IMG/VR virus record: IMGVR_UViG_3300032214_000615
DNA: 64,000 bases
Strand: one strand, 5' to 3'
DNA from: a virus
Taxonomy: Duplodnaviria; Heunggongvirae; Uroviricota; Caudoviricetes
Part shown: piece after piece, positions 8,664-60,041 of the stretch
How the letters are laid out: each line of letters opens with the position of its first letter
How positions within the stretch are numbered: the first letter of the stretch is position 1
The notes under the pieces: generated by a model
Seen by the model: the letters and a program-made list of their open reading frames with translations, nothing else
What the model was told of the DNA's origin: nothing
Databases searched by the model: none
Position numbers and translations under genes: made by a program

Positions 8664-8681
8664 TATTATCAGGAATAATTT

Positions 8682-10004: not shown

Positions 10005-10010
10005 CACATT

Positions 10011-32554: not shown

Positions 32555-32814
32555 GTGATTCAATGTCTGCTCATCGCGACGATCTTCGTGAGTGGAATGA
32601 ATTTTGTGAAAAAACTAAAATTCCACTTAGTTGGAGAGTCTATAGTCCGGACTCAATGTGGGCAAGAAGATTTCATAATGAACGTGGGTTAGTGGGACGA
32701 GAATTAATGTTGGCTGTAAAGCAAGAACTAGAAACTATAGCTCTTAAACAGAAACACGCCACTCAGCAACAAGAGCTTAAGCAGTTAATTGAATTGGAAA
32801 AGAAGTATCAATGA
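32551..32814 (+). CDS. Hypothetical small protein
   Basis: 87 aa, translationally coupled on both sides (ATGA overlaps). Confidence 0.4.
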   Translation: MSDSMSAHRDDLREWNEFCEKTKIPLSWRVYSPDSMWARRFHNERGLVGRELMLAVKQELETIALKQKHATQQQELKQLIELEKKYQ

Positions 32815-34427
32815 GTTATGTGGATGCCATCTTCGACAGAGAGCGTGATACAATTCACGTTGTAGAACGTTCGCCCACCGGCAAACGTGTATATCAGCAG
32901 TATCCTGCCAATTATGTTTTTTATTATGATGACCCCAAGGGCAAGCATCGTAGTGTAAATCTTGATCCAGTCAGCAGATTCAGCAGTCGCAAGCGCGGTG
33001 AGTTCATGAAAGAACTCAAGATTCACAGTGGCAAGCGTACATATGAAAGCGATTTGAATCCAATATTCAGATGCTTGGCTGACAATTATTTGGACGCAGA
33101 GTCTCCGCGACTACATATCTGCGTTTTTGACATTGAAACAGACTTCAATCCTGATCGTGGATTCGCTCCTACTACTGATCCATTCAACCCAGTAACCGCA
33201 ATCTCGTTGTACTTGGATTGGTTGGGACAGTTAATAACACTGTGTATTCCGCCAAAACATATGTCGCAGGAAACTGCTGCTGAAATAGCAGGTCAGTTTG
33301 ATAACACTTTTGTGTTTGAAAATGAAACTGATATGTTCAATGTGTTTTTTGAGTTGATTGATGACGCTGATGTACTAACTGGCTGGAACAGTAGTGGATA
33401 CGATATTCCCTATATGGTCAATCGTGTTACTCGTGTAATGAGTAAGGATGATACACGCAGATTCTGTTTGCTAAATCAACTGCCAAAGCTACGCAAGTAT
33501 GTTATGTTTGATCAAGAACAGGAAACGTATGATCTAAGTGGTCGCATTCATATGGACTACTTGGAGCTATACAAGAAGTATAACTATGAAAGTCGTCATA
33601 GTTATAAGCTTGATTTCATTGGTGAAATGGAAGTAGGAGAGAAGAAAGTTCAGTATGAAGGAACTCTAGATCAACTGTACAACAAAGATTGGCGCAAGTT
33701 CTTAGAGTACAATCGTCAAGACACACTGTTGCTATTCAAGATTCATGACAAGCTAAAGTTCTTGGATCTTGCCAATAGCATCGCGCATCAAAATACCGTA
33801 TTGCTACAAACTGTCATGGGCAGTGTGGCAATGATTGAACAAGCCGTTATTAATGAAGCTCACGCTCGTGGGTTAGTAGTACCAGACAAAAGGAAAGTAA
33901 ATGAAGACACAGAACCAAAAGCAGCCGGTGCCTATGTTGCTACGCCCAAGCGGGGCATGCACGAGTGGATCGCGGCGGTTGACATCAACAGTCTCTACCC
34001 ATCAGCTATCCGCGCTCTTAACATGGCCCCGGAAACCATTATTGGGCAACTCAGACCAACACTCACAGACAAGTACATCAGTGACAAAACATCTGCTGGC
34101 GTAGAATTCGCACACGCGTGGGAAGGTTTGTTCGGCACACTGGAATACACTAGTGTGATGAATCAAGAGCGTGGCACTATGATTACCATTGATTGGGAGC
34201 GTGGTGGCAGTGAAACTGCCAGTGCGGCTGAGATTTGGAAGCTAATCTTTGACAGCAATCAACCCTGGATGATCAGTGCCAACGGAACAATATTCACTTA
34301 TGAGCGAGAGGGTATCATTCCTGGTCTACTCACCAAGTGGTACACTGAGCGTAAAGAAATTCAAAAGCAACTCAAAGAGGCCTCAAGCGTTATTTATGGA
34401 ATTGAATTGCCAAAAGACATGTTATGA
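32811..34427 (+). CDS. Family-B DNA polymerase, fragment 1 of 3 (N-terminal, 3'-5' exonuclease and palm motif A)
   Basis: Exo I ICVFDIETDF, exo II-like LTGWNSSGYDIPYM, motif A AAVDINSLYPSAIRALN. Ends at a stop before motif B. Confidence 0.8.
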   Translation: MSYVDAIFDRERDTIHVVERSPTGKRVYQQYPANYVFYYDDPKGKHRSVNLDPVSRFSSRKRGEFMKELKIHSGKRTYESDLNPIFRCLADNYLDAESPRLHICVFDIETDFNPDRGFAPTTDPFNPVTAISLYLDWLGQLITLCIPPKHMSQETAAEIAGQFDNTFVFENETDMFNVFFELIDDADVLTGWNSSGYDIPYMVNRVTRVMSKDDTRRFCLLNQLPKLRKYVMFDQEQETYDLSGRIHMDYLELYKKYNYESRHSYKLDFIGEMEVGEKKVQYEGTLDQLYNKDWRKFLEYNRQDTLLLFKIHDKLKFLDLANSIAHQNTVLLQTVMGSVAMIEQAVINEAHARGLVVPDKRKVNEDTEPKAAGAYVATPKRGMHEWIAAVDINSLYPSAIRALNMAPETIIGQLRPTLTDKYISDKTSAGVEFAHAWEGLFGTLEYTSVMNQERGTMITIDWERGGSETASAAEIWKLIFDSNQPWMISANGTIFTYEREGIIPGLLTKWYTERKEIQKQLKEASSVIYGIELPKDML

Positions 34428-35291
34428 CTTCAATCTTCTTCTGATAACTTCATCACTCCATTGATTGATTGTATTAGAATCTTCAAAGATTAGATTGAAG
34501 TTTAGCTCAGTGTCGCTAAGTCTTAGTATGTTATAACCTAACTCTCTTGCAGAATTAGTTTTTAACAAGTCTCTGTTTATTTGTTTTGGTTTAGAATGCC
34601 AGAACTCGCCGTCAACTTCTATTAATAGATTCAATGATGGAATATAAAAATCAAAAACCCATGAGCATTTTTCTGCGACTACTATGAATTGTGAAATATA
34701 TTCAATATTATTTTTCAATAAAAACTCAGCGCATTCAAGTTCTATAGAGGTGAATGATGATTTAGTTTTGTTGGTTGAAAGATACGCTGATCTTTTCAGG
34801 GAGCGATTCATTCTCTGTTCGTTCGTTAAATTTAGAAGACGACCTTTATTATGATGTCCATTTTTACCATTTGAGTTTCCCATCATGAGCTTTGATCTTG
34901 CCAAGCGTTGTTCTACTGTCCATTTTGGCGGTCTCCATCCGTTTTCCAAACGAGCCTTCATGTTTTCTTTTGATATTTCTGCCATATTTATTTTGTATTC
35001 TTCGGTATGTGACCCCCATGATTTACCTGTTCTTGATTCCGAAAGTTTCTTTTTGTGCTCTTCGGATTTTGGTCTGTCAGTCAGAGCAATAATAACCTTG
35101 TTTTTACTTTCTTCATTATGCATGGGATTAGCTTCGCGAAATGCTTTGCCGTATGAGTGTCTTAGCTCTGAGCTAATAGTCTCTGCGTCTGGATAAAGTG
35201 ATGAATATTCTGTGGTAGTCAAATCATGTGTGTTGAGATGAGTTCCAGTAATTCTTTTAAAAAGTTTTTTACAAATTTCACAAGTTATCAT
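34422..35291 (-). CDS. Free-standing homing-endonuclease-like protein: N-terminal zinc finger plus C-terminal Vsr-like (PD-(D/E)xK) nuclease domain, inserted between PolB fragments 1 and 2 on the opposite strand
   Basis: CEICKKLFKRITGTHLNTH zinc finger. C-terminal LLIEVDGEFWHSKPKQINRDLLKTNSARELGYNILRLSDTE matches Vsr (GCFWHxH ... GWRVLIVWE). Confidence 0.65.
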   Translation of the reverse strand: MITCEICKKLFKRITGTHLNTHDLTTTEYSSLYPDAETISSELRHSYGKAFREANPMHNEESKNKVIIALTDRPKSEEHKKKLSESRTGKSWGSHTEEYKINMAEISKENMKARLENGWRPPKWTVEQRLARSKLMMGNSNGKNGHHNKGRLLNLTNEQRMNRSLKRSAYLSTNKTKSSFTSIELECAEFLLKNNIEYISQFIVVAEKCSWVFDFYIPSLNLLIEVDGEFWHSKPKQINRDLLKTNSARELGYNILRLSDTELNFNLIFEDSNTINQWSDEVIRRRLKS

Positions 35292-35332
35292 TTTTAATTC
35301 TTATTTAGTAAAGCTCCATAAATATATTTATC

Positions 35333-36061
35333 ATGAATCTACAAAATTTTAATTTATCCACGGTTAAGAATTTCATAGACGCTAGAGACACAAATGGTCT
35401 AAAAACATATATCTCTGAGTTCGGCCTAGAAATTAGAGAAGGTAAAATTTTGCCAATGACAGAACATTTAGCAGCATGGCAAAATTTACACGATTTTTAT
35501 GACAAGCGTCAGTTAGTTCGTAAGATTTTATTAAATTCGGCATACGGTGCCCTTCTCAATACACACATGCGATTCTACGACATTCGTATTGGTCAGAGTA
35601 CTACGCTCAATGGTCGTCAAATCGTCAAGCACATGAGTGCTCACTTGAATGAGCAAATTGCTGGTGAATACGATCACAACGGAGAAGCAATCGTGTACGG
35701 GGATAGTGTAACCGCGGACACGATCATTCGTACTGATACAGGATCTATTACTATCGAGAAACTATTCAATATGTCATTAGAAAAATGTATCAGTGATGAT
35801 AAAGAATATGGGGTATGGAATGATGCAAAGGTGCTGGGGTTCAACTCAGAAACTATGGAGCCTATAACAGCAAAAATTTCATATGTCATGAGACATAAAA
35901 CAAAGAAAAAATTATATAGAATTACCACCGAAAACGGTAAACAAGTAACGGTCACCGAAGATCACAGTCTAATTGTAGATAGAGATGGATTTTTAGTTGA
36001 ATGTAAACCTACCGATATTAGAGACACTGACTTAATCATCACTTTTGATCCTTCTGCATAA
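35333..36061 (+). CDS. Family-B DNA polymerase fragment 2 (motif B through YGD of motif C) fused to a split-intein N-terminal half
   Basis: Motif B KILLNSAYGALLN. VYGD followed directly by SVTADTIIRTDTG (intein block A) and TEDHSLIV (block B), then a stop. The intein part starts at 35705. Confidence 0.8.
   Translation: MNLQNFNLSTVKNFIDARDTNGLKTYISEFGLEIREGKILPMTEHLAAWQNLHDFYDKRQLVRKILLNSAYGALLNTHMRFYDIRIGQSTTLNGRQIVKHMSAHLNEQIAGEYDHNGEAIVYGDSVTADTIIRTDTGSITIEKLFNMSLEKCISDDKEYGVWNDAKVLGFNSETMEPITAKISYVMRHKTKKKLYRITTENGKQVTVTEDHSLIVDRDGFLVECKPTDIRDTDLIITFDPSA
35705..36061 (+). mobile_element. Split intein, N-terminal half (IntN, 118 aa) inserted after YGD of polymerase motif C
   Basis: Ser1 + blocks A/B, terminated by a stop; sits in a different reading frame from the IntC gene. 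Confidence 0.75.
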
Positions 36062-36090
36062 ATAATCTATGGAGATAGAAGTATCAGCAT

Positions 36091-37050
36091 ATGATTAAAT
36101 GTTTAGAATGCGGATTTGAGTCCAGCAGACTTCAATGGACTCATTTCAAATATAAGTGTACCGGACGTTTTCAAAATGGAACGGAATATTTGAAGGCGTA
36201 TCCGCATGCAAAAGTAGTTGATACTGAGTTGGCTTCTAAAACTACACTAACAAAATCAAAATTCATTGAAAAATATGGTGAAAAAGAAGGAATTGAAAAA
36301 TGGGATGCTTATAGAAATAAGCAAGCGTACTCAAATTCCTTTGAGTACAAACAACAAAAATATGGGTGGACTCAACAGCAATTTGATGAATATAACTCAA
36401 ATAGAGCGGTGACGTTAGAAAAGTGTATCCAGCGACACGGAGAGAACGAGGGCGTTCATGTATGGAATGAATATGTTCAAAAGCAAGCATATACAAAAAC
36501 GCAAGCATACTTTATTGAGAAATATGGAGAAAAAATAGGAACAGAAAAATTTTCTCAAGTAAATTTTCTGAAAAGTGCAGCCGTAAATCCCAAAACTATG
36601 GCAGAGGTAAAAAACATATCGGTTGACGACGCTGTTGATATTATTCTTAACAGAAAGAATATGTTCAGATATACGTCAAATCTAGAAAAGGAATTTGTAG
36701 AGAAACTAGAACATCGCATTGGCCCAATGCAACATACGAGCGTCAATAAACCATATGGAAAATGGTCAACGTTGCTGAATTCATACGTGGTATTTGATGT
36801 AAAACATAATGATTGTGTGATAGAATTCAACGGAGATTACTGGCATTGTAATCCAAAGTTATACGAATCGATTGATACTGGCCCTGGAAATAAAACAGCT
36901 CAAGAAATTTGGGATAGGGATGCTAAAAAAATTCAAACAGCGAGAAATCTTGGATTTAGAGTACTGACTGTGTGGGAATCAGATTACATAAAGAACAAAC
37001 AAAAAATTATAGAAGAGGTGATTGAATGGATGCTGAATGGACAAAAGTAA
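36091..37050 (+). CDS. Free-standing homing-endonuclease-like protein (zinc finger + repeated YGxxxG modules + Vsr-like nuclease) located between the two halves of the split intein
   Basis: CLECGFESSRLQWTHFKYKC. Repeats FIEKYGEKEGIEKWDAY / FIEKYGEKIGTEKFSQV. C-terminal VIEFNGDYWHCNPKLY...LGFRVLTVWESDY (Vsr motifs). Confidence 0.7.
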   Translation: MIKCLECGFESSRLQWTHFKYKCTGRFQNGTEYLKAYPHAKVVDTELASKTTLTKSKFIEKYGEKEGIEKWDAYRNKQAYSNSFEYKQQKYGWTQQQFDEYNSNRAVTLEKCIQRHGENEGVHVWNEYVQKQAYTKTQAYFIEKYGEKIGTEKFSQVNFLKSAAVNPKTMAEVKNISVDDAVDIILNRKNMFRYTSNLEKEFVEKLEHRIGPMQHTSVNKPYGKWSTLLNSYVVFDVKHNDCVIEFNGDYWHCNPKLYESIDTGPGNKTAQEIWDRDAKKIQTARNLGFRVLTVWESDYIKNKQKIIEEVIEWMLNGQK

Positions 37051-37151
37051 GTAAAATTGAATGCTTGGGTGAAGTAGATGACTATGTGTATGATATAAGC
37101 ATAGAGAATCAAGACCCATTCTTTTTTGCCAATGATATTTTGGTTCATAAT
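37026..37151 (+). mobile_element. Split intein, C-terminal half (IntC)
   Basis: Ends HN, then the +1 Thr of the extein. Confidence 0.75.
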
Positions 37152-38015
37152 ACAGATAGCTGCTATTTCAGTGCATATCCTACTCTCAAGCAGGATATTG
37201 ACAGCCGCAAGATTGAGTGGAATAAAGACGTAGCTATTCAGTTATACGATCAAATAGCAGAGAATACCAATGCCAGTTTCCCACAGTTTATGGAACGAGC
37301 GTTTCACTGTCCACGAAAGAATGGCGCTATTATCAAAGCCGGGCGTGAATTGGTAGCTGATCGTGGAATCTTTATGACCAAGAAGCGCTATGCTGTTAAC
37401 ATCTATGACAAAGAGGGTAAGCGACTAGACGTTAACGGTAAACGTGGTAAGATCAAGGCTATGGGTCTTGATCTAAAACGCGCAGACACTCCAAAATACA
37501 TACAAAACTTTTTGTTTGATATTTTGGAAGATGTACTCGCTGGCGTCAGTCGCGTCGAGATTGTCGAGAAAATTAAAGCATTCAAAATAAATCTGGAACA
37601 ACAGCCTGCTTGGACAAAGGGCAGTCCCAAGGGAGTTAATAAGCTAACCTGGTATGGCGAACAGCAAGAAAAGGCTGATAAAAAAATCAATATGCCAGGG
37701 CACGTTCGCGCTAGTTTAAATTGGAATTACTTGAGAACTTTGAACAATGATACGTACAGTCAAAAAATAGTTGACGGTATGAAAATCGTAGTATGTAAGT
37801 TAAAAGATAATTTACTAGGAATGACCAGTATTGCGTATCCAACTGATGAGCTAAGACTGCCTTCTTGGTTCTTGGAACTTCCTTTTGATGATCGTGGTAT
37901 GGTTCAAACTCTTATTGATGAAAAGATAGAAAATTTATTGGGAGTGTTAAAGTGGAACATATCCAAAGACATTAATACCAGTAGCACTTTTAATTCATTA
38001 TTTACATTTTCTTAA
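37026..38015 (+). CDS. Split-intein C-terminal half (42 aa) fused to family-B DNA polymerase fragment 3 (TDS of motif C and thumb)
   Basis: GEVDDYVYDISIENQDPFFFANDILVHN (blocks F/G) immediately followed by TDSCYFSAY, which completes YGD|TDS. Confidence 0.8.
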   Translation: MDAEWTKVSKIECLGEVDDYVYDISIENQDPFFFANDILVHNTDSCYFSAYPTLKQDIDSRKIEWNKDVAIQLYDQIAENTNASFPQFMERAFHCPRKNGAIIKAGRELVADRGIFMTKKRYAVNIYDKEGKRLDVNGKRGKIKAMGLDLKRADTPKYIQNFLFDILEDVLAGVSRVEIVEKIKAFKINLEQQPAWTKGSPKGVNKLTWYGEQQEKADKKINMPGHVRASLNWNYLRTLNNDTYSQKIVDGMKIVVCKLKDNLLGMTSIAYPTDELRLPSWFLELPFDDRGMVQTLIDEKIENLLGVLKWNISKDINTSSTFNSLFTFS

Positions 38016-50288: not shown

Positions 50289-50317
50289 TTGACTTTCATG
50301 CGTTATATAAATATAAT
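50289..50317 (+). promoter_or_regulatory. Strong sigma70-type promoter TTGACT-N17-TATAAT
   Basis: Direct reading; drives the Lys/Ala-rich peptide gene. Confidence 0.55.
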
Positions 50318-50524: not shown

Positions 50525-50543
50525 AAATTTTTTATTTCTATAA

Positions 50544-50573
50544 AAGGGAGACTTTTGTCTCCCTTTTATTTTT
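50544..50573 (+). terminator. Rho-independent terminator (9-bp GC-rich stem, TTTT loop, T-tract)
   Basis: AAGGGAGAC-TTTT-GTCTCCCTT followed by TTATTTTT. Confidence 0.65.
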
Positions 50574-51322: not shown

Positions 51323-51373
51323 GTATTAAATTCTAGTAGAGAACAGTGGGAGCTAAACTGCTCCCACTATTTT

Positions 51374-51726: not shown

Positions 51727-52125
51727 ATGCCGTGTCGTGATTATGGTAGCGATGACTATGATTTTTCTGATAGACAATTGGGAATTCTAAAGCGCCAAGC
51801 AGAGGAAGAGATTCTTAAAGAGCGTGCCGATATGCTGGCTCGTATTGCCTGCCGCGCACTTGAAGCCATTGAGGCTGGTGGCGGCACTTACAGTCATCTT
51901 CTTGAAACCGTCATTCAAGACAAGGAGACTGCTGATTGGTGGGTAAAGCATAAGGAACAGGATAAAAAGCAACGTCTGATTCGTCTTAAAGAAGAACTAA
52001 AAAAGAAAGAACAGGATGAGTTAAAAAAACGTGCCTATGCTAAATTGACTGAAGAAGAAAGACAATTGTTTGGTTTGAATAAAAAGAAAGCAGATAAGCA
52101 AAATGGAACAAGAAGTTACTACTGA
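51727..52125 (+). CDS. Hypothetical early protein (coiled-coil, Lys/Glu-rich)
   Basis: 132 aa, RBS GAGGTGAAACATG. Confidence 0.45.
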   Translation: MPCRDYGSDDYDFSDRQLGILKRQAEEEILKERADMLARIACRALEAIEAGGGTYSHLLETVIQDKETADWWVKHKEQDKKQRLIRLKEELKKKEQDELKKRAYAKLTEEERQLFGLNKKKADKQNGTRSYY

Positions 52126-52456
52126 GCTGCCAGACGAACTAGTTGAAGAACTAGAGGCAGTTATCAAACAAGATTCTATGAGAGAATCACGTGCCACACG
52201 CATCATGCTGGAATTGGTAAAATGCCAACGCGCTGATTTTCTACTACTGCGTGACGATGATGTCCGTAAGTGGTGGGGGCAAATTCTAAAACACGTAGAA
52301 ACTACTATTTCCGAAAGAAAGCGAAGATGGAACGAATATACAGTCAAAGTCGCGGCATATGAACGTCTGTTGCCAGAAGAACGCCGCGCTCTGGGAATTC
52401 GTAAGCCATCAAAACCACAAGGCAAAAATCCATTTGACAATAAATCGGTTAGGTGA
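52103..52456 (+). CDS. Hypothetical early protein
   Basis: 117 aa; its last codons (FDNKSVR*) are encoded by promoter cassette 1. Confidence 0.45.
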   Translation: MEQEVTTELPDELVEELEAVIKQDSMRESRATRIMLELVKCQRADFLLLRDDDVRKWWGQILKHVETTISERKRRWNEYTVKVAAYERLLPEERRALGIRKPSKPQGKNPFDNKSVR

Positions 52457-52462
52457 TATACT
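52434..52462 (+). promoter_or_regulatory. Promoter cassette 1: TTGACA-N17-TATACT with extended -10 TG
   Basis: TTGACAATAAAT...TGATATACTGTATTCA consensus shared by 5 copies. Confidence 0.6.
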
Positions 52463-52493
52463 GTATTCACTGAGTTAAACAAAGGAGTAAGAA

Positions 52494-52892
52494 ATGGGAA
52501 CACGCAGCACTATCGCACTTGAGTACGCAGACGGTACCGTTGGTCAAGTTTATTGCCACTGGGACGGCTACTTGGATCACAACGGCATGATCCTGGACAT
52601 CAACTACACAGACCCGTTCAAAGTGCGTGAGCTGTTGGACCGTGGTGATATGAGTACGCTGGATACCTCTGTTAGCGGCTGCGACTTCTATTCTAATCGC
52701 GGTGATTACGTGCCGCAGCGTATGTATAAGGACTTCGCTGAATATCAGAGTCAAGCATCAATGGAGGAATACGACTATATCCTGCGTCAAATCGATGGCA
52801 AAGCCGTATGGTTTGTGCGTAGTTACGCAACCCACGATGATTGGGTCACTCTGGAGAAGGCTTTTGTGGCGGAAAAGGAGTACACAGAATGA
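52494..52892 (+). CDS. Hypothetical early protein (higher GC)
   Basis: 132 aa, RBS AAAGGAG, preceded by cassette 1. Confidence 0.5.
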   Translation: MGTRSTIALEYADGTVGQVYCHWDGYLDHNGMILDINYTDPFKVRELLDRGDMSTLDTSVSGCDFYSNRGDYVPQRMYKDFAEYQSQASMEEYDYILRQIDGKAVWFVRSYATHDDWVTLEKAFVAEKEYTE

Positions 52893-53080
52893 TCAAGGTT
52901 GTAACGAATAATTTGGGAAGCGGTGATTGGACTACGGTTCTGGGTCACTGCGGTGAAGTCCTGTTCGAGGGGCATAAAGCAGGCCCGCAAGACATTGTAG
53001 ACATCTTGAACAGTCTACTGGATTGCGGTGCGACACTGGTGGAAGTCACTGACGAACAAATGGAAGAACAGTATCCCTGA
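52889..53080 (+). CDS. Hypothetical small protein
   Basis: RBS AAGGAG before ATG 52889 (the ATGA overlaps the upstream stop). Confidence 0.45.
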   Translation: MIKVVTNNLGSGDWTTVLGHCGEVLFEGHKAGPQDIVDILNSLLDCGATLVEVTDEQMEEQYP

Positions 53081-53082
53081 AT

Positions 53083-53111
53083 TTGACAATAAATCCAATT
53101 CCTGATATACT
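53083..53111 (+). promoter_or_regulatory. Promoter cassette 2 (TTGACA-N17-TATACT)
   Basis: 53082-53140 is near-identical to cassettes 4 and 5. Confidence 0.6.
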
Positions 53112-53140
53112 GTATTCAAGTTAGAAAACAGGAGCAAACG

Positions 53141-53290
53141 ATGTTTCAAGACTGGCTCTACCAAGACATGACGGACTTTGAAAGTGCCTTGGAATACGAA
53201 CGTGAGCATCCTAGTTGGCAGTGTGAGTGGGATCAGCGTATGGCTAATGAGTTTCCTGTGTTTGTTACTGATTTGGGAGTTGAAGAATGA
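53141..53290 (+). CDS. Hypothetical small acidic protein
   Basis: 49 aa, RBS CAGGAG, preceded by cassette 2. Confidence 0.4.
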   Translation: MFQDWLYQDMTDFESALEYEREHPSWQCEWDQRMANEFPVFVTDLGVEE

Positions 53291-53553
53291 ACGAACGAAT
53301 TCAAGAACTTGCTGACAGGCTGTGGCGTATTCATCCTAAGGATATTGATGCTATGGGATTAAAAACTCGCAAAGAGTTTTATGAACAAGAATTGAAAAAG
53401 TTTGCCGAGTTGTTGATTCGGGAATGTATCACACAATGTGAAAATGTTGGTGAAATTGCTGAACAAACGAATCACGGTGAGATGGCTCGTAAGACTAAGG
53501 CAACATCTAATGGTTGTGCCCAAATGATAAAGTGGCGTTTTGGACTTGAATGA
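53287..53553 (+). CDS. Small protein, member of the MNERI paralog family (3 copies)
   Basis: MNERIQELADRLW...KFAELLIRECITQCEN. Shares MNERIxELA...EKFAELLIRECIEQCE with 56973 and, more distantly, 57203. Confidence 0.5.
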   Translation: MNERIQELADRLWRIHPKDIDAMGLKTRKEFYEQELKKFAELLIRECITQCENVGEIAEQTNHGEMARKTKATSNGCAQMIKWRFGLE

Positions 53554-53560
53554 CCGAAAT

Positions 53561-53589
53561 TTGACAATAAATACGTTTCCTGATATACT
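53561..53589 (+). promoter_or_regulatory. Promoter cassette 3 (TTGACA-N17-TATACT)
   Basis: Same consensus; subfamily with cassette 1 (tattcactgagtta). Confidence 0.6.
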
Positions 53590-53622
53590 GTATTCACTGA
53601 GTTAGACAACGGAGTAAACGAA

Positions 53623-54108
53623 ATGAACTGCGCACCCACTCTCACTGCCGAAGAATTCAAGCAAATCCACAATGGTCTGTGCGACCTCAGGCATGCGATT
53701 GACCGTCTCGACGGCGTGTTGGCCCCTGATGTTTTCAAACTCCTTACTAAGGCTAAGGAACAAATTTCTGTTGGTTTGGTCGGTGCTTACGAACAGGATA
53801 CTCGTTCGTTTGATAGCAAGCATAGTCATTATGGATCTGTGCAGAAGGATCTGGGTCTGGATGCCATCTGGTCTCTGTACGAAATTGATGACCTGAACAA
53901 GCCGCATTCGTTCGAAGGTGTGACCAAGGTTGTGTATCGTAACCACTGGGGTCGTAAGTCGGTGTCGTGCACGATTAATGGCAATACCTGGGCTTCACTG
54001 TATGTGGCTGCTAATGCTTGCATCCGTGATAGCAGCGACAATCACCATGTCTTCATTGAGGATTTCACCAAGGAAGATGATACTCTGATTTTGTCGACCG
54101 GTTCTTGA
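53623..54108 (+). CDS. Hypothetical early protein (higher GC)
   Basis: 161 aa, RBS ACGGAG, preceded by cassette 3. Confidence 0.5.
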   Translation: MNCAPTLTAEEFKQIHNGLCDLRHAIDRLDGVLAPDVFKLLTKAKEQISVGLVGAYEQDTRSFDSKHSHYGSVQKDLGLDAIWSLYEIDDLNKPHSFEGVTKVVYRNHWGRKSVSCTINGNTWASLYVAANACIRDSSDNHHVFIEDFTKEDDTLILSTGS

Positions 54109-54518
54109 TAATGTCTGAACTTTCACGCGACCAAAAACGAGAACTCACGGACTCTGGCTTGATGTTTCTTCGTGCTGTAGGTAATATCTACGGTAGTGAA
54201 CGTGCCTTGGAAATGTGGCACACTATCGCCGATACAATTAACTCTGATTTGAAGGGTTGGACGTTTGAGGCTATGTTGCTTGGTCGTATGGAGTCCTCTA
54301 TCGTTATCCAATATCTTGGTATGCATGTCAATAAAATTGCCATCATCAAGGCAATTCGTACATGGGATAGGCGTGGTCTTGGATTGAAGGAAGCTAAGGA
54401 CATGCTAGACGAATTGATGGAACGCGGGAAAGAAATCACACTAGAGGTAAGTTACAATAGAGTGAATCACGCAGCCGAAGAATTTAGGAATCTAGGATGT
54501 AAAGGATTAGGGTTATGA
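54105..54518 (+). CDS. Hypothetical protein
   Basis: 137 aa, coupled (ATGA). Confidence 0.45.
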   Translation: MIMSELSRDQKRELTDSGLMFLRAVGNIYGSERALEMWHTIADTINSDLKGWTFEAMLLGRMESSIVIQYLGMHVNKIAIIKAIRTWDRRGLGLKEAKDMLDELMERGKEITLEVSYNRVNHAAEEFRNLGCKGLGL

Positions 54519-55213
54519 ATTCAATATTTGTTGATTTAGATTACAAGGTTAAACAAAAAGAATTAATTTCTACAGAAATTGATTCATTAGTGCTTAGTGT
54601 TGCTTATTATCGGTATAGAACTGATTCTAGAAATTACTACATTGAAAATTTCTATGACGCTAAAATTGTGTCTAGCGTCACTGATGAAGATTATTCTACT
54701 GCTCGTCGCATTCGTGAGTACTATAGTAAAAAAATAATGTGGTGGAAACTTAGCGGAAAACATCTATCAAAATTTCGCAGTGACTTGGCAGAATTCTTGT
54801 CAGAAGATAATTCTCGCTCTTTTGACAAGAGCATTTGTGGTTTAATTTGGAAATTGCCAGAATTTTATTTTTATGATGTTGAGTTAGATCGGCTGTTTGA
54901 GTCACAACAGAATTATACTGTAATTGAGTCAGAAGTCCAAAATTCTGAGTTTACAGTTAAATTTTTGACAAAGCTGTCTAGAAAGACACGATTCAACGAT
55001 GTGATCAAATATTGGTTTATAAACAAAGACGGAGTAATTGTCAATTTTACAATTGATCGTAAAAACATATTGTTGCCGATGTTTGAATCTATCGTGACTA
55101 GTGGAAAATTTTTAAAATTGACGGCCAAGTCAGCGAAAGTCGCAACTTACGACAGTAATCAGTATTGGAACATTACTGCTCTGAATTCTGTGTGTTTTGA
55201 CTCTTGTCAATAA
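54515..55213 (+). CDS. Hypothetical protein (AT-rich, unlike its neighbours)
   Basis: 232 aa, coupled (ATGA). Confidence 0.45.
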   Translation: MNSIFVDLDYKVKQKELISTEIDSLVLSVAYYRYRTDSRNYYIENFYDAKIVSSVTDEDYSTARRIREYYSKKIMWWKLSGKHLSKFRSDLAEFLSEDNSRSFDKSICGLIWKLPEFYFYDVELDRLFESQQNYTVIESEVQNSEFTVKFLTKLSRKTRFNDVIKYWFINKDGVIVNFTIDRKNILLPMFESIVTSGKFLKLTAKSAKVATYDSNQYWNITALNSVCFDSCQ

Positions 55214-55250
55214 ATACATCTTCTGCTATAATGTCAAACTATTGAGACAA

Positions 55251-55439
55251 ATGGATACTTGTATGAAGCGAGAAGTAATTTCTTTCACTGCTGCTAAGCC
55301 TCGTGATATCATTGCGCGTGATATGATGGATCGCAATGGCCCATTTAAAGCCAAAGTGGAGTGCGATCAACGAAAGTATCGTCGCAATCAAAAGCATCGG
55401 AAAAACTTTTCGGATTATTCAGATCGGTTTTATCGTTAA
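55251..55439 (+). CDS. Small basic protein (start uncertain)
   Basis: ORF 55197-55439; the TATAAT at 55227 suggests a start at 55251 or 55263. Arg/Lys-rich C-terminus. Confidence 0.3.
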   Translation: MDTCMKREVISFTAAKPRDIIARDMMDRNGPFKAKVECDQRKYRRNQKHRKNFSDYSDRFYR

Positions 55440-55456
55440 TCTGTACAAAAAAACTC

Positions 55457-55485
55457 TTGACCTAAATTAGAAAATAGGTTATAAT
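55457..55485 (+). promoter_or_regulatory. Sigma70-type promoter TTGACC-N17-TATAAT
   Basis: Direct reading, 80 nt upstream of 55567. Confidence 0.5.
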
Positions 55486-55566
55486 AGAATCTTCAACAGA
55501 ACAATACGAATTGCCCGAGTTTGTATTGTTCTATTCAATAATCATCGGGAAATAAGGAAATGTAAA

Positions 55567-56052
55567 ATGGCTACTCTTAACACTCTGTGGACTTGTGTCG
55601 GTATTACTAAGCATGTTGGCTCTAATGGCAAGGAAGTTGTCAAGGTTCGTTGTGGCGTGGATCTCGCTCGTCGCATCAAATCCAGTCAATCTGCTTCCTA
55701 TGTAAAGAGCAAGGGTGAAAAGTTGAAGGAAGTTCGCACGGACTTTGTATCGCTTCCTACTCCTATGCTGCGTTTGGACGCACTAAAGTTTGCGCTGGCT
55801 GCCCCAGACTTTCAGTCACCCAGCGATCAAGCACTGATTCAGGACGCCATTGATAGTCGCGTGCCGAAGCAGCCTCGCGAGAAGGCAAAGGCTGAAAAGA
55901 CTGTCAAGGTTCGTGCTTCTAAGAACACATCGCCTAGTCTTGATAGCATCAAGGCTCGCGTTCGCAAGACCAAGACAACGGTAGAGGATGTTCTTTCTGC
56001 TGTCGCAAGTGAGAAAATCTCGTCTGAGACTGAATCAGTATCCGCAGAATAA
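55567..56052 (+). CDS. Hypothetical Lys/Ala/Ser-rich protein (higher GC)
   Basis: 161 aa, RBS AAGGAAATG. 5'UTR carries a 10-bp inverted repeat. Confidence 0.5.
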   Translation: MATLNTLWTCVGITKHVGSNGKEVVKVRCGVDLARRIKSSQSASYVKSKGEKLKEVRTDFVSLPTPMLRLDALKFALAAPDFQSPSDQALIQDAIDSRVPKQPREKAKAEKTVKVRASKNTSPSLDSIKARVRKTKTTVEDVLSAVASEKISSETESVSAE

Positions 56053-56064
56053 TCGGTATCTAGC

Positions 56065-56301
56065 ATGAGTAGACTTTCCTCGGTTGGTCGTCAGTGGGTC
56101 AATTTTGACCCAGCAAACAAGAATCATCGTAGTTGGTATGCGAAATTTGAACGCAATAAAACGTGGGGCGGCTGTCCAGTGAGATTTGTTGTTAGTGACG
56201 ATCACGGGGATGTACTTAGCATGATTCGCGCACAACTGACTCAGTACTATATCGGCAGAGAATTTGATTTGAGTCGGCTTGACAATAAATCCGAATCCTG
56301 A
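56065..56301 (+). CDS. Hypothetical small protein
   Basis: 78 aa; its last codons (LDNKSES*) are encoded by promoter cassette 4. Confidence 0.45.
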   Translation: MSRLSSVGRQWVNFDPANKNHRSWYAKFERNKTWGGCPVRFVVSDDHGDVLSMIRAQLTQYYIGREFDLSRLDNKSES

Positions 56302-56307
56302 TATACT
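56279..56307 (+). promoter_or_regulatory. Promoter cassette 4 (TTGACA-N17-TATACT)
   Basis: 56278-56332 is identical over 55 nt to 56690-56744. Confidence 0.65.
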
Positions 56308-56336
56308 GTATTCAAGTTAGAAAACAGGAGCAATTG

Positions 56337-56501
56337 ATGAGCACTTTCGTTTTTAGAAGCCCGCAAAGCGAGGTTCGTGTCACTGTGATTGCTGCCGATC
56401 ATGCCCGTGCTACACAGGAGTTGGTACAGCGTCTTGAGCACCTTGAACAGATGGGCATCGTGATCAGCCCTGAAGATTTTGAATTGGTAAGTGCCTACTA
56501 A
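56337..56501 (+). CDS. Hypothetical small protein
   Basis: 54 aa, RBS CAGGAG, preceded by cassette 4. Confidence 0.4.
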   Translation: MSTFVFRSPQSEVRVTVIAADHARATQELVQRLEHLEQMGIVISPEDFELVSAY

Positions 56502-56511
56502 GGAGTACACG

Positions 56512-56682
56512 ATGAAAACCTGGGAAATCTGTGTAGAGGATGGACCACATCAATGCTTTTATGTAGAGGCACAGGCCCGCACTCTTGATGAGGCTATCCA
56601 CAAAGTTCGGAGTGATATGAAAAAGCAGAAGCCTTGGCTTCATATCCTGATTAGTCACGCCGCCTGTAGAGAAATCAAATAA
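56512..56682 (+). CDS. Hypothetical small protein
   Basis: RBS AAGGAG before ATG 56512. Confidence 0.4.
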   Translation: MKTWEICVEDGPHQCFYVEAQARTLDEAIHKVRSDMKKQKPWLHILISHAACREIK

Positions 56683-56690
56683 CCTTCCAC

Positions 56691-56719
56691 TTGACAATAA
56701 ATCCGAATCCTGATATACT
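56691..56719 (+). promoter_or_regulatory. Promoter cassette 5 (TTGACA-N17-TATACT)
   Basis: Identical to cassette 4 over 55 nt. Confidence 0.65.
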
Positions 56720-56748
56720 GTATTCAAGTTAGAAAACAGGAGCACAAG

Positions 56749-56973
56749 ATGAAGGTCACAATCAATCCGTTCCAAACTCGTCAAATCGGTAGCAACATTG
56801 TTGAGGTGTGGGTTGGTACTCCGGGCGAGGCAGAAAGCGAATTTGTCTGCTCCGTTGGTATCAACCTCGTGCCCCAACTGATTGCCACACTGCGGAAGAT
56901 TGAGGGCAAGCGAAAGCCTATTGATCCCCGAGATAAACTGATCAAGTCTGTGGATATCATTGGAGATAGATAA
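56749..56973 (+). CDS. Hypothetical small protein
   Basis: 74 aa, RBS CAGGAG, preceded by cassette 5. Confidence 0.45.
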   Translation: MKVTINPFQTRQIGSNIVEVWVGTPGEAESEFVCSVGINLVPQLIATLRKIEGKRKPIDPRDKLIKSVDIIGDR

Positions 56974-57206
56974 TGAACGAACGAATCTTTGAACTGGCCA
57001 ACAAGGCTGGATTTGAAAATGGGCATCAGGATCGCAACGGCAATTCATTATCAGGTGAATTAGAAAAGTTCGCCGAGTTGTTGATTCGGGAATGTATCGA
57101 ACAATGCGAAAAGCAAGAGTATGACTACTGGCGTGCTCCGGAAGATCAAGAATTCACGCCGCAGGATTGTGCTGATGCGCTTGCTCGACATTTTGGAGTG
57201 AAATGA
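56973..57206 (+). CDS. MNERI-family small protein (paralog 2)
   Basis: MNERIFELANKAG...EKFAELLIRECIEQCEK. Confidence 0.5.
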   Translation: MNERIFELANKAGFENGHQDRNGNSLSGELEKFAELLIRECIEQCEKQEYDYWRAPEDQEFTPQDCADALARHFGVK

Positions 57207-57475
57207 TGATGGAACGAATTAAAGAACTTGCCGAGCAGGCTGGTATGACCGACGATAAGTTTGGTATGTTCTTTGCCAAAGACAAGCACGATGAAGACGG
57301 TGTTGACTTGGAAAAGTTCGCTCGGTTGATTGCCAAAGAATGTGCGGTTTTGGCTATGACCGAACACCATAGCACCAGTCCTGCTGAATACGAGGAGATG
57401 GAGCCATACGAGCAAGGCTGCGATGATACTGCTAGTGCCATCAGCGGCAAGATCCGTAGAATTTTCGGAGTTTAA
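57203..57475 (+). CDS. MNERI-family small protein (paralog 3, diverged)
   Basis: MMMERIKELAEQAG...EKFARLIAKECA. Confidence 0.45.
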   Translation: MMMERIKELAEQAGMTDDKFGMFFAKDKHDEDGVDLEKFARLIAKECAVLAMTEHHSTSPAEYEEMEPYEQGCDDTASAISGKIRRIFGV

Positions 57476-57477
57476 GA

Positions 57478-57663
57478 ATGAAAGCAGAATTTGAAATGAC
57501 CTTGTTTGATGACGAGGAAACAGCAAAGAACTTGCCAATCCTGAATCGTCTCGAAGCATTGTTTGATCACTCTAAAAACAATTTGCCCGAAGAATACTTT
57601 TGGTTCAGCGACACTTTGCCGGTGGGTTCTCGGGTAAAAATTACATTTGAGGTAATAGAATGA
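57478..57663 (+). CDS. Hypothetical small protein
   Basis: 61 aa ORF. Confidence 0.35.
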   Translation: MKAEFEMTLFDDEETAKNLPILNRLEALFDHSKNNLPEEYFWFSDTLPVGSRVKITFEVIE

Positions 57664-57875
57664 TGCGTCTAGGAGCCTACGAACGAATCGCCCAAACTCT
57701 GCTGCGTGGTCAGCCCAAGCCCCAACGGTTTGCCCGTGTTTGGGAAGGTAGGCTGCTCACCGGTACAAAGAGTCTGCACCGTACCCCACAGAGCCGTCGT
57801 TGGCGAATGTTTTGGCGACTCAAGAGTCAGCGGCAGACCTCTGTTGAATTCTACTGGCAATCAAAGTCCCAGTAG
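57660..57875 (+). CDS. Hypothetical small basic protein
   Basis: 71 aa ORF, Arg-rich. Confidence 0.35.
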   Translation: MMRLGAYERIAQTLLRGQPKPQRFARVWEGRLLTGTKSLHRTPQSRRWRMFWRLKSQRQTSVEFYWQSKSQ

Positions 57876-57880
57876 TTGAC

Positions 57881-57909
57881 TTGACTAATAATAAAAAATA
57901 AACTATACT
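57881..57909 (+). promoter_or_regulatory. Sigma70-type promoter TTGACT-N17-TATACT
   Basis: Direct reading upstream of the RNA ligase gene. Confidence 0.5.
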
Positions 57910-57941
57910 ATAACATCTCAATAAACAGTTTGGAATAACTT

Positions 57942-58976
57942 ATGTACAAGAACGGTGAACGCATGATGGCTTGGATTGCCAAAATTGCTGAAGTGTCTGA
58001 TATCCCGAATGCTGATTCTATTTGCGCCTATCGTGTTGGTGGGTGGTGGGTAGTAGATAAGAAGAATGCCTACAATGTGGGTGATCTTTGCGTTTATGTA
58101 TCCATCGATTCCTGGGTACCAACCGAACTGGCACCGTTCCTGAGCAAGGGCAATGAACCTCGTGAATACAATGGGGTCAAGGGTGAACGTCTGCGAACTG
58201 TGAAGTTGCGCGGAACTACCTCACAAGGCTTGCTGCTACCACGGTTGGTTGTGCTTGACAAGGTAGGCGAGATCGCTGAAGCCCAAGATGTGACCGAACT
58301 TCTTGGCATTCAAAAGTGGGAAGCACCTGTCCCGGCTCAGTTGGCTGGTCAAGTGCGCGGTGTCTTTCCTGCGTGGGGTAAAAAGACTGATGCTGAACGG
58401 TGCCAAAACTTGACAAGTGAAATCAAGCGGGCATATGATGAAGAGGTTCAATTTGAAATCACGATCAAGCTGGACGGCACTTCTATGTCTGCTGGGGTAG
58501 GACCAGACGGAGAATTCTGTGTATGCTCACGAAATCTTTCATTGAAGTTGGATCAAATTGGCAATACTTACGTTGATGTTGCCAAGATGTATGATCTTGA
58601 GACTAAAATGAAAGGTCTTGGGCGACCATTGATGATTTCTGGCGAAATCATCGGTGAAGGAATCCAGAAGAACCAAGAAAAAATCAAAGGGCAAGATTTT
58701 TACGTGTTCAATATCTGGGATCCGATTCGAGGTGAGTATCTTTCTATGGCTGAGCGTAAGCAAATTGTTACGATTCTAGGTCTAAAGCACACTCCGGTGA
58801 TGCATGAATCGGTCACTCTACGCGAACTCGGATTGGACACTGTTGAAAAGATTCTGAAGTTTGCAGAGGGCCCGTCATTGAACGCCGTATCCCGAGAAGG
58901 AGTGGTATTCAAGTCGGTGGATGGAAAGTTTATGTTCAAGGCTGTGAGTAACGCATGGCTAGTGAAAAATGAATAA
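57942..58976 (+). CDS. ATP-dependent RNA ligase (nucleotidyltransferase superfamily; DraRnl/Rnl-like with N-terminal domain)
   Basis: Motif I EITIKLDGTS, motif III FYVFNIWD, motif IV REGVVFKS, motif V KFMFKAV. About 50% GC versus about 37% in the phage backbone. Confidence 0.6.
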   Translation: MYKNGERMMAWIAKIAEVSDIPNADSICAYRVGGWWVVDKKNAYNVGDLCVYVSIDSWVPTELAPFLSKGNEPREYNGVKGERLRTVKLRGTTSQGLLLPRLVVLDKVGEIAEAQDVTELLGIQKWEAPVPAQLAGQVRGVFPAWGKKTDAERCQNLTSEIKRAYDEEVQFEITIKLDGTSMSAGVGPDGEFCVCSRNLSLKLDQIGNTYVDVAKMYDLETKMKGLGRPLMISGEIIGEGIQKNQEKIKGQDFYVFNIWDPIRGEYLSMAERKQIVTILGLKHTPVMHESVTLRELGLDTVEKILKFAEGPSLNAVSREGVVFKSVDGKFMFKAVSNAWLVKNE

Positions 58977-59030: not shown

Positions 59031-60041
59031 ATGATATTATGTCCGCAATGTAATCATTCGTCAATATCCGTGAAAGCATTTAGAAGTCACGTAGCAAAAT
59101 CACATAAGGATCTTTCTGAATTACAATCCGAGGAGATGTGTGTTTATACGATTCACGGTAAAGAGTTAGTTGATAAGATCGTTCAACAGTATGTTGATGA
59201 GCACTTCGCAATTACATCTCTACCTATTCCAATTTCAAAGTACATTACATTAATTGGTAAAAAACGTTCAGCGTCAGAGGAAAAGAAAACTAAAAGATAT
59301 AAAGCTAAAATATCCGCGACTCTAGCTGAAAGATATGGTGAAGGAATAATAAATCCGAGTCAAATTCAAGCAGTTAAAGAAGCGGTAAAATCAACAAACA
59401 TTAAAAAGCATGGTTCGTATGAAAAATATCTAGAGATAAAAAATAAAGAATTAAGCGAGGGATATAAAAGTTATATACAAAATGATGTTCTAAAAAAAGA
59501 CAGAACCTTAAAAGCGGAAAAAACATGCTTGGAAAGATACGGTCATAAAAACTTTGGGGCGGGCAAAAAGGCAAAAGACAAGAGAATAAAAACAATGTCT
59601 GAAATTATTGCCAATTGGGATTATGAAGAGAGACTTTCAAGAACAAATAATGCCAGAAACGCAGTAACTCATCGTGGAGGCTTCTCATCAAATCCAGAAA
59701 AAAGAGTCAGAGTAGCACTCGTCATTCTTGATATTGAATATATTCCAAACATTTTTCTACTCAACTATAGTTGGGACATGTTGATTGAAAACAAAATATT
59801 AATTGAGGTACAAGGAACAATGTGGCACGCTCATCCGTCAAAATATAAAGCAGATGATTTAATTATGAACAAGATACCGGCTCAGACTATATGGGATAAA
59901 GATCAGAGAAAACGAGAAATTGCAGAACACAACGGATACAAAGTTGTATACATTTGGGAACACGAAATAGATAAGCTGTCAGATTTTGAAATAATTGATT
60001 TCGTATCCGAGAGACTTAAATCAGTCAAAAATAACACTTGA
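59031..60041 (+). CDS. Third free-standing Vsr-like homing-endonuclease-family protein (zinc finger + YGxxxG repeats + Vsr-like nuclease)
   Basis: CPQCNHSSISVKAFRSHVAKSH; LAERYGEGI... / LERYGHKNFG... repeats; C-terminal ILIEVQGTMWHAHPSKYKADD...NGYKVVYIWEHE. Confidence 0.65.
   Translation: MILCPQCNHSSISVKAFRSHVAKSHKDLSELQSEEMCVYTIHGKELVDKIVQQYVDEHFAITSLPIPISKYITLIGKKRSASEEKKTKRYKAKISATLAERYGEGIINPSQIQAVKEAVKSTNIKKHGSYEKYLEIKNKELSEGYKSYIQNDVLKKDRTLKAEKTCLERYGHKNFGAGKKAKDKRIKTMSEIIANWDYEERLSRTNNARNAVTHRGGFSSNPEKRVRVALVILDIEYIPNIFLLNYSWDMLIENKILIEVQGTMWHAHPSKYKADDLIMNKIPAQTIWDKDQRKREIAEHNGYKVVYIWEHEIDKLSDFEIIDFVSERLKSVKNNT

Follow-up and report, generated by a model that had tools for sequence, protein, structure and literature searches.

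A recurrent, predicted promoter-leader cassette at the joints between small-gene modules of an uncultured jumbo phage

We analyzed a 64,000-nt stretch (the window) of the Caudoviricetes record IMGVR_UViG_3300032214_000615. By exact protein matches, the window belongs to the 341,154-bp ENA scaffold KRAE22-1_SAMEA4981785_METAG-scaffold_5 and thus stems from an uncultured, metagenomic jumbo phage of about 341 kb. The large open reading frames (ORFs) of the window all lie on one strand. The subject here is a short cassette, made up of a predicted promoter and a translation leader, of which all five copies lie within 52.4-56.8 kb, among genes encoding proteins of 49 to 232 amino acids. The variable region around them extends over approximately 52.4-57.9 kb, and no cassette was found in the 0-47 kb occupied by large replication and other genes. 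With the cassettes given as numbers in brackets, the gene order is F52-[1]-F13-g63-[2]-g49-F0a-[3]-F21-F14-F15-[diverged copy] in the first part and g78-[4]-g54-g57-[5]-g74-F0b-F0c-F54-F22 in the second. The genes behind the cassettes have no Pfam or PHROG function except for one L7/L12-like domain; one of them belongs to a PHROG of unknown function.

A search with the 36-nt pattern TTGACAATAAAT-N8-TGATATACTGTATTCA yielded five exact matches, all on the plus strand and at the cassette starts listed in Table 1; none was found in 100 dinucleotide shuffles, which corresponds to a chance expectation of 0. A profile built from 51 unique copies recovered the same five copies only (nhmmer, E-values of 4e-14 to 6e-13), with the next hit in the 64-kb window at an E-value of 0.12. 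All five had been pointed out at these positions by an earlier, sequence-only reading of the window, which had taken the gap between the two conserved blocks as five plus two bases; searching with N7 found nothing, and the gap is 8 nt. As that reading had also stated, every copy has the geometry TTGACA-17 nt-TATACT, with an extended -10 TG one base 5′ of the -10 box. Conservation in the profile begins about 4 nt before the -35 box and comprises this box, ATAAATC, the TG, the -10 box and GTATTCA, continuing more weakly through the leader. Across about 50 contigs, 28 of the 36 core positions are fixed and the 8-nt spacer is nearly free.

Over 55 nt, copies 4 and 5 (56278-56332 and 56690-56744) do not differ, not even in the otherwise variable spacer CCGAATCC, just as had been claimed. 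Copy 2 departs from them at two spacer positions and also, beyond the 2 nt counted earlier, at the base preceding the -35 box. The leader following GTATTCA is A-rich, unstructured and 22-27 nt long. It has form A, CTGAGTTAnACAAnGGAGTAA, in copies 1 and 3 and form B, AGTTAGAAAACAGGAGCA, in copies 2, 4 and 5, and a third form, TAGTCAGAAAACGGAGCA, occurs in relatives. A Shine-Dalgarno GGAG lies 5-7 nt 5′ of the ATG in all five copies. The AGGAG-N7-ATG of the earlier description was therefore too strict, since copy 3 reads CGGAG, the spacing to the start codon varies and the leader takes two forms within the window.

Table 1 Cassettes, adjoining genes and other features of the window
Feature	Position	Strand	Description
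Cassette 1	52434-52493	+	leader type A (CTGAGTTAAACAAAGGAGTAAGAA); ATG at 52494; nhmmer E 6e-13
Cassette 2	53083-53140	+	leader type B (AGTTAGAAAACAGGAGCAAACG); ATG at 53141
Cassette 3	53561-53622	+	leader type A; ATG at 53623
Cassette 4	56279-56336	+	leader type B; ATG at 56337
Cassette 5	56691-56748	+	leader type B; ATG at 56749
Diverged sixth family member	55204-55262	+	TTGTCAATAAAT-ACATCTTC-TGCTATAAT (N8 gap); precedes DUF7230 gene 55263-55439
F52	52103-52456	+	117 aa; last 7 codons and stop are cassette 1 sequence; ends ...PFDNKSVR*
g78	56065-56301	+	78 aa; last 7 codons and stop are cassette 4 sequence; ends ...RLDNKSES*
Cassette 1 module	52494-53080	+	F13 (52494-52892, phrog_1987), g63 (52889-53080)
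Cassette 2 module	53141-53553	+	g49 (53141-53290), F0 paralogue F0a (53287-53553)
Cassette 3 module	53623-55213	+	F21 (53623-54108), L7/L12-CTD-like protein (54111-54518), F15 (54515-55213)
Cassette 4 module	56337-56682	+	g54 (56337-56501), g57 (56512-56682)
Cassette 5 module	56749-57875	+	g74, F0 paralogues (56973-57206 and 57203-57475), F54 (57478-57663), F22 (57660-57875)
PolB piece 1	32811-34427		exonuclease domain and first part of polymerase domain
Endonuclease gene	34422-35291	reverse	Vsr/DUF559/MTES_1575-like; after PolB piece 1
PolB piece 2	35333-36061		polymerase profile positions 146-234, then intein splicing domain
Endonuclease-like ORF	36091-37050		MTES_1575 family; after PolB piece 2
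ORF	37026-38015		last listed piece of PolB region

aa, amino acids; CTD, C-terminal domain; PolB, family-B DNA polymerase.

The cassette differs from the other promoters of the region. Near-consensus sigma-70 promoters at 50289, 50967, 51666, 55457 and 60038 lack its extra conserved positions. One of these, an ordinary sigma-70-like promoter at 55457 (TTGACC-17-TATAAT), occupies 55457-55566 together with its leader of about 80 nt, behind which lies the gene 55567-56052; this leader contains a 15-bp hairpin (55498-55532, -16.9 kcal/mol, z -2.6) that may be a regulatory structure in the 5′ untranslated region. A degenerate promoter, TTGACTAATAATAAAAAATAAACTATACT, is found at 57881-57941, directly 3′ of F22 and 5′ of an RNA ligase gene (57942-58976), at the place where the relatives L007, L017, L044 and L049 have a full cassette after F22. 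The T4-type late promoter TATAAATA, searched for as a contrasting class, was not enriched (7 matches against 6.25 expected). An operator-like palindrome, TGAtATAC-T-GTATTCA, was considered and dropped, as the variant copies TGCTATACTGCATTCA and TGATATACTGCTCTCA alter one arm without compensation.

No stem-loop or terminator was found in the cassettes. Folded with 20 nt of upstream flank, the five copies gave -7 to -12 kcal/mol with z-scores of -1.1 to +1.05 and had no helix in common. The leaders alone had z-scores of -1.1 to +1.7 and were, if anything, less structured than their shuffles. A terminator scan returned no terminator-like site at any cassette. The convincing intrinsic terminators on the plus strand lie at 50540-50569 and 51345-51368, both upstream of the cassette array; each is followed by a consensus promoter (50967 and 51666, respectively), forming conventional terminator-promoter pairs. 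An Rfam search of 50-58.5 kb gave no family, only two sub-threshold small RNA hits on the terminator hairpin at 50.5 kb. Upstream of the -35 box, AT enrichment over the background of 59% was restricted to positions -5 to -1 (AAAAT, 70-74% AT) and -10 to -9.

The cassettes are tightly joined to the genes preceding them. The upstream stop codon lies inside the cassette in 29 of 49 unique junctions (24 in the -35 box, 3 at the extended -10 and 2 in the leader) and 3-34 nt 5′ of it in the remaining 20. The stops in question are the TGA within TTGACA, which ends the upstream gene in 24 of 49 junctions, the TGA of the extended -10, used in 3 of 49, two of these being the window's own, and the leader TAG, used in 2 of 49 and kept by all three leader forms. 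Since these three stops lie in different frames, every incoming reading frame is closed before the ribosome-binding site, and this closure produces the ..DNKSxx* tails. In agreement with the sequence-only reading, F52 and g78 run through the -35 box and end in ..DNKS..*; both read TT followed by GAC AAT AAA Tnn nnn nnn TGA, with the TGA of the extended -10 as stop. The same reading had placed the cassette boundaries inside coding sequence, which is borne out by the homologues. The F52 homologues of L020 and L041 align up to residue 107 of 117 only and end ..KPKG* at the -35 TGA, and g78 has four database homologues, in which conservation extends up to ..REF and is followed by four differing tails. 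In the g78 homologue of L060 the tail, ..DKICQ*, runs into TTGTCAATAA. The TAA stop of ORF 54515-55213 likewise lies inside the diverged sixth copy, within CAATAAAT, the same type of junction. Because the ..DNKS.. tails are not conserved among homologues, they are, judged by these alignments, by-products of the junctions.

We then looked at the distribution of the cassette. The exact 36-nt pattern is present at 24 IMG/VR loci on 19 contigs, one of which is 239 kb long and holds at least 8 exact copies, and at 32 metagenome loci; allowing up to 3-4 mismatches gives 109-123 unique copies. It occurs in multiple copies in about 50 related metagenomic contigs. When the window was compared with these loci by blastn, the cassettes were 85-97% identical, and most flanking genes either could not be aligned or had only about 67-72% identity. 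None of 50,697 deposited phage genomes contains the cassette, and none of 185,579 bacterial and archaeal genomes contains it in its exact form. The entire 5-kb cassette region has no DNA match in any of these phage genomes, the distant blastn mode included, and there is no cultured reference for it. A shorter core, tried as a clue to the host, gave four single hits in unrelated gut and Saccharibacteria metagenome-assembled genomes, which is about the chance level and uninformative.

To compare gene content, we used the related loci found via the cassette search (numbered with an L below), all of which are short-read metagenome contigs. As the sequence-only reading had anticipated, relatives differ in the genes between cassette copies, and a number of these differences are bounded by cassettes. 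At cassette 1, homology with L032, L053 and L041 starts at the -35 box, and the sequence 5′ of it is unrelated. L032 (73-78% identical to the window) has the order [P]-F13-g63-[P]-F21, where [P] is a cassette; the part that it lacks is precisely the cassette 2-3 interval. L053 (81-93% identical), with the order [P]-F13-[P]-F21, lacks this interval and g63 too, and its single cassette joins a spacer like that of cassette 2 to a leader like that of cassette 3. In L041 an extra cassette with a small gene is inserted between the F52 homologue and the cassette before F13. Cassette 2 and the g49 module (53080-53290) recur at 90.5% identity in a different context in L050; the cassette of this L050 module has a 5′ half that resembles cassette 3 and a leader that resembles cassette 2. 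A circular permutation of the cassette 2-3 module was considered for L050, and the order F0-[cassette]-g49 would fit; its F0 is only a family-level relative, however, and gives no evidence for it.

The gene behind cassette 3 also has a cassette before it in L039, L053, L009 and L032, where the genes further 5′ differ, with identity starting inside the cassette. From the cassette onward, the module is 88-93% identical to L009, L039 and L053; in L039 (89.6% identical) the upstream gene is unrelated and near-perfect identity begins between the spacer and the -10 box. In L044, with the order F22-[P]-g54, the cassette 4 module is preceded by F22 instead of g78, and in L060-L063 a cassette and a gene other than that of the window come after the g78 homologue. 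Further cases do not involve the window itself. L005 has the order F5-[P]-F8-[P]-F29 and L006 the order F5-[P]-F29, which is also found in L010. The single cassette of L006 corresponds to the left cassette of L005 up to ..CAACGGA and to the right one from the -10 box, placing the cross-over within about 35 identical nt. Between L062 and L060 the backbone is 98-99% identical, modules of 117 and 67 amino acids differ, each flanked by cassettes, and a segment of only 87% identity begins exactly at a cassette. These arrangements are replicated: L060 equals L061 from another sample (100% over 8 kb), and L062 equals L063 from a different project (99.8%).

Some of the genes in the array deserve mention in their own right. 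The protein encoded at 54111-54518 contains a ribosomal L7/L12 C-terminal domain (PF00542, 31.7 bits, cut-off 25.9); its gene is kept in L024, L039 and L060-L063 and adjoins F21 in L024 and L039. F0, a small protein with the sequence MNERI.ELA...KFAELLIRECI, constitutes the largest gene family of the related loci and has three paralogues in the window (53287-53553, 56973-57206 and 57203-57475). Its conserved 5′ end also served as the site of a recombination between L062 and L060. The duplication that gave rise to the F0 genes behind cassettes 2 and 5 is an old one. Tandem gene duplication was rejected as the source of the repeats: cassettes 4 and 5 cease to match at their edges, and the genes behind them are not related.

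Sinorhizobium phage Phosso, the Pseudomonas PA5oct group and Agrobacterium Atu_ph07 have family-B DNA polymerases with 47% identity to the one encoded in the window. By this marker the source phage is therefore placed as an uncultured jumbo phage on a PA5oct/Rak2-like branch, and is not a member of the Tevenvirinae. The polymerase gene, which spans 32811-38015, is split into at least the pieces given in Table 1 and looks like a product of homing endonuclease and intein invasion, possibly with a split intein. ORF 59031-60041 (336 amino acids) has a weak match (E-value of 0.008) to the same MTES_1575 endonuclease family as 34422-35291 and 36091-37050 and may be a third free-standing gene of this homing-endonuclease-like type, located within the variable region. 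Elsewhere, a 221-nt direct repeat of 70% identity (8668-8888 and 9997-10217) lies at the starts of the adjacent large ORFs 8682-10004 and 10011-11669, which are probably tandem paralogous genes.

Taken together, we consider it likely that the cassettes are promoters for the host polymerase combined with a standard translation leader, and that they serve as preferred joints for recombination of small accessory modules. Each cassette would be a portable front end of about 60 bp, placing a gene under a promoter close to the consensus recognized by the host's sigma-70 RNA polymerase (TTGACA, 17-bp spacer, extended -10 TG, TATACT), with transcription probably starting at the A of ..GTATTCA. The relative PA5oct relies on RNA polymerase of its host (PMC7318152), and the phage presumably does so as well; as a consequence, the small genes behind the cassettes would probably be early, and each accessory module would be provided with its own expression. 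With no terminator between the units, transcription from successive cassettes in the same direction should add up along the array. At the same time, about 55 bp recurring many times per genome would form islands of homology across this clade of uncultured phages, where recombination may delete, insert or exchange modules, inside one genome as well as between relatives during co-infection. The cassettes would be the preferred joints because they are the only long identical sequences among otherwise unrelated genes, and the stops in three frames should make almost any join viable. Spacer identity rises from a baseline of 0.44 to 0.53 when two copies have the upstream gene family in common, and leader identity from 0.44 to 0.60 when they have the downstream gene family in common. 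The spacer thus tracks the upstream gene and the leader the downstream gene, which suggests that typical cross-overs fall in the core between the -10 box and the transcription start, and that the 5′ half including the spacer tends to move with the gene before it and the leader with the gene behind it.

Several observations count against a role as recombination joints, and some of them favor another explanation: that the cassettes are nothing more than one class of conserved strong early promoters, each with a standard leader, whose likeness is due to selection on expression or to a phage regulator that binds DNA or mRNA there, and that gene order changes by generic illegitimate recombination, among whose products the survivors keep a gene together with its promoter. 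Promoter function, start site and early timing are read from the consensus. Cassette zones make up 4.2% of the bases and hold 25% of 1,188 non-redundant alignment end-points, and the right-hand neighbor is kept in other genomes in 5 of 80 cassette junctions compared with 101 of 300 junctions without a cassette (Fisher p = 2e-7, odds ratio 0.13), but both statistics were ascertained on cassette-rich loci and are confounded with operon boundaries, as cassettes coincide with operon starts. Not all differences are bounded by cassettes: F54 is missing from L049, where gene meets gene at the junctions, L053 lacks g63, and one difference between L062 and L060 reaches from within an F0 paralogue to the start of a gene, so that some indels occur at gene boundaries or in F0-paralogue homology. 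The two clean, cassette-flanked indels of L062 and L060 share only about 9-10 nt at the -35 box, with junctions confined to the edge of TTGACA, which looks more like microhomology than homologous exchange. Conservation is position-specific, with 28 fixed functional positions around 8 spacer positions that vary almost freely (identity 0.44), and spacers are only weakly homogenized within genomes (0.47 versus 0.44, permutation p = 0.05); selection on function fits this pattern at least as well as frequent copying and pasting. Because of the weak homogenization, selection on function is a better explanation than constant copy-and-paste for the uniformity of the cassette across the clade. On the other hand, promoter function alone does not require the extra conserved positions, since the nearby sigma-70 promoters do without them, and several junctions are difficult to reconcile with selection on expression alone. 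The chimeric cassette of L006 has its cross-over inside a 35-nt identical stretch, and the switch from unrelated upstream genes to downstream genes of 89-100% identity falls inside the cassette. Moreover, cassettes 4 and 5 share even the free spacer, which has a chance of about 1e-3 per pair, estimated from the per-site baseline of 0.44, and indicates a recent exchange between these two. We therefore regard the promoter-only explanation as unlikely.

Assembly artifacts have to be considered as well, because a 55-nt repeat is prone to breaks and mis-joins by assemblers. The cassette-bounded indels and swaps could then be chimeras or repeat collapses of co-occurring strains at a repeat of 55-60 nt, to which short-read assemblies would be liable; indeed, the assembly of the Logan contig L027 broke at the repeat, so that its first bases lie within cassette 5, and cassettes form the ends of several short contigs. 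Replication in independent assemblies (L060 and L061, L062 and L063 from different projects, and the arrangement of L006 found again in L010) lessens this worry without removing it, and the 73-93% identity to the window of L032 and L053, which lack the cassette 2-3 interval, marks these as different lineages and not as collapsed copies of one population, making it very improbable that artifacts account for the pattern. We give just as little credence to the cassette being a selfish mobile element of the miniature inverted-repeat transposable element (MITE) type, or the attachment site of a dedicated site-specific recombinase comparable to integron attC. Such an element would account for the sharp boundaries of the copies, their many contexts and the cassette-like behavior of the modules. 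It does not account for every copy having gene orientation and a fixed distance from the start codon, and the varying cross-over points along the cassette fit a single site-specific cut poorly; no terminal inverted repeats or target-site duplications were seen in the junction alignments, and no integrase or transposase among approximately 35 ORFs scanned in 64 kb of the 341-kb genome, which is weak evidence. Preferred recombination at host-polymerase promoters thus remains the reading that we favor. In a more far-reaching form, which we put forward tentatively, this terminator-less universal joint of promoter, leader and three-frame stops would be the main vehicle for the exchange of accessory genes in a whole clade of uncultured jumbo phages, known to date from metagenomes only. 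Its uniformity, including ATAAAT, GTATTCA and leader positions not required by sigma-70, would be kept by a dual role as co-regulated immediate-early signal and recombination substrate, and excised single-gene circles might be intermediates.

Among known systems, integron cassettes are promoterless and are moved by a dedicated integrase at the structured attC site. In both systems, modules of single genes come, go and change order between short conserved sequences; in the phage, however, the repeat is itself the predicted promoter, has no conserved secondary structure and shows varying cross-over points, and no integrase was found among the ORFs scanned within 64 of the 341 kb. The features of MITEs, inverted-repeat ends and duplications, were not seen in the junction alignments, and all copies are co-oriented with the genes. 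Lambdoid phages possess boundary or linker sequences, short conserved intergenic recombination joints between exchangeable modules, with few per genome. The phage likewise appears to use short conserved sequences as preferred module joints, but with one promoter-leader unit recurring at many junctions of a single genome. PA5oct, one of the nearest cultured relatives by PolB (47%), carries 32 promoters of the sigma-70 type whose TTGAC and TATAATA motifs lie at transcription starts (Lood et al. 2020, PMC7318152). No cassette sequence shared with PA5oct was found, the 5-kb region having no hit in any deposited phage, and a role in gene shuffling is not described for the PA5oct promoters in the part of that publication considered here.

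The closest parallel, already suggested by the sequence-only reading, is provided by the promoter-early stem-loop (PeSL) cassettes of T4-type phages (Arbiol et al. 2010, PMC2839356; Comeau et al. 2014, PMC4122927). Here, too, a promoter that by sequence is near the sigma-70 consensus ends with a Shine-Dalgarno sequence and the start codon of the downstream gene; the copies are numerous and concentrated in a variable (hyperplastic) region before small ORFans. They flank indels and replacements, and where a deletion has occurred one cassette remains, in some cases a chimeric one, as for ORF192 in RB49 and phi1. The resemblance holds for this behavior and not for the stem-loop. In contrast to PeSLs, the phage's cassettes have no stem-loop or terminator component, what seems to be a short A-rich patch of about 5 nt, not an AT-rich region, 5′ of the -35 box, and no intergenic gap, the upstream stop lying inside the cassette in most junctions. 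They are also far more uniform, including a conserved leader, and belong to an uncultured PA5oct/Rak2-like jumbo phage instead of Tevenvirinae. Because the defining stem-loop and terminator are absent, the cassettes are not strict members of the PeSL class; they work like PeSLs and are a terminator-less relative.

Their occurrence extends the idea of a regulatory cassette doubling as a recombination joint from a few cultured T4-type phages to a distant lineage of uncultured jumbo phages, and suggests that the terminator half of PeSLs is dispensable. The 36-nt pattern provides a searchable marker for the clade and its variable regions, with which the acquisition and reshuffling of orphan genes by jumbo phages becomes testable on existing metagenomic reads. 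The junctions explain odd C-terminal tails and stop codons inside promoters that annotation pipelines may misread, and the natural spacer variation offers ready-made parts for predicted very strong sigma-70 promoters and leaders. Compared with PeSLs, the cassettes carry a known principle further and add some anatomical novelties, but they do not amount to a new principle.

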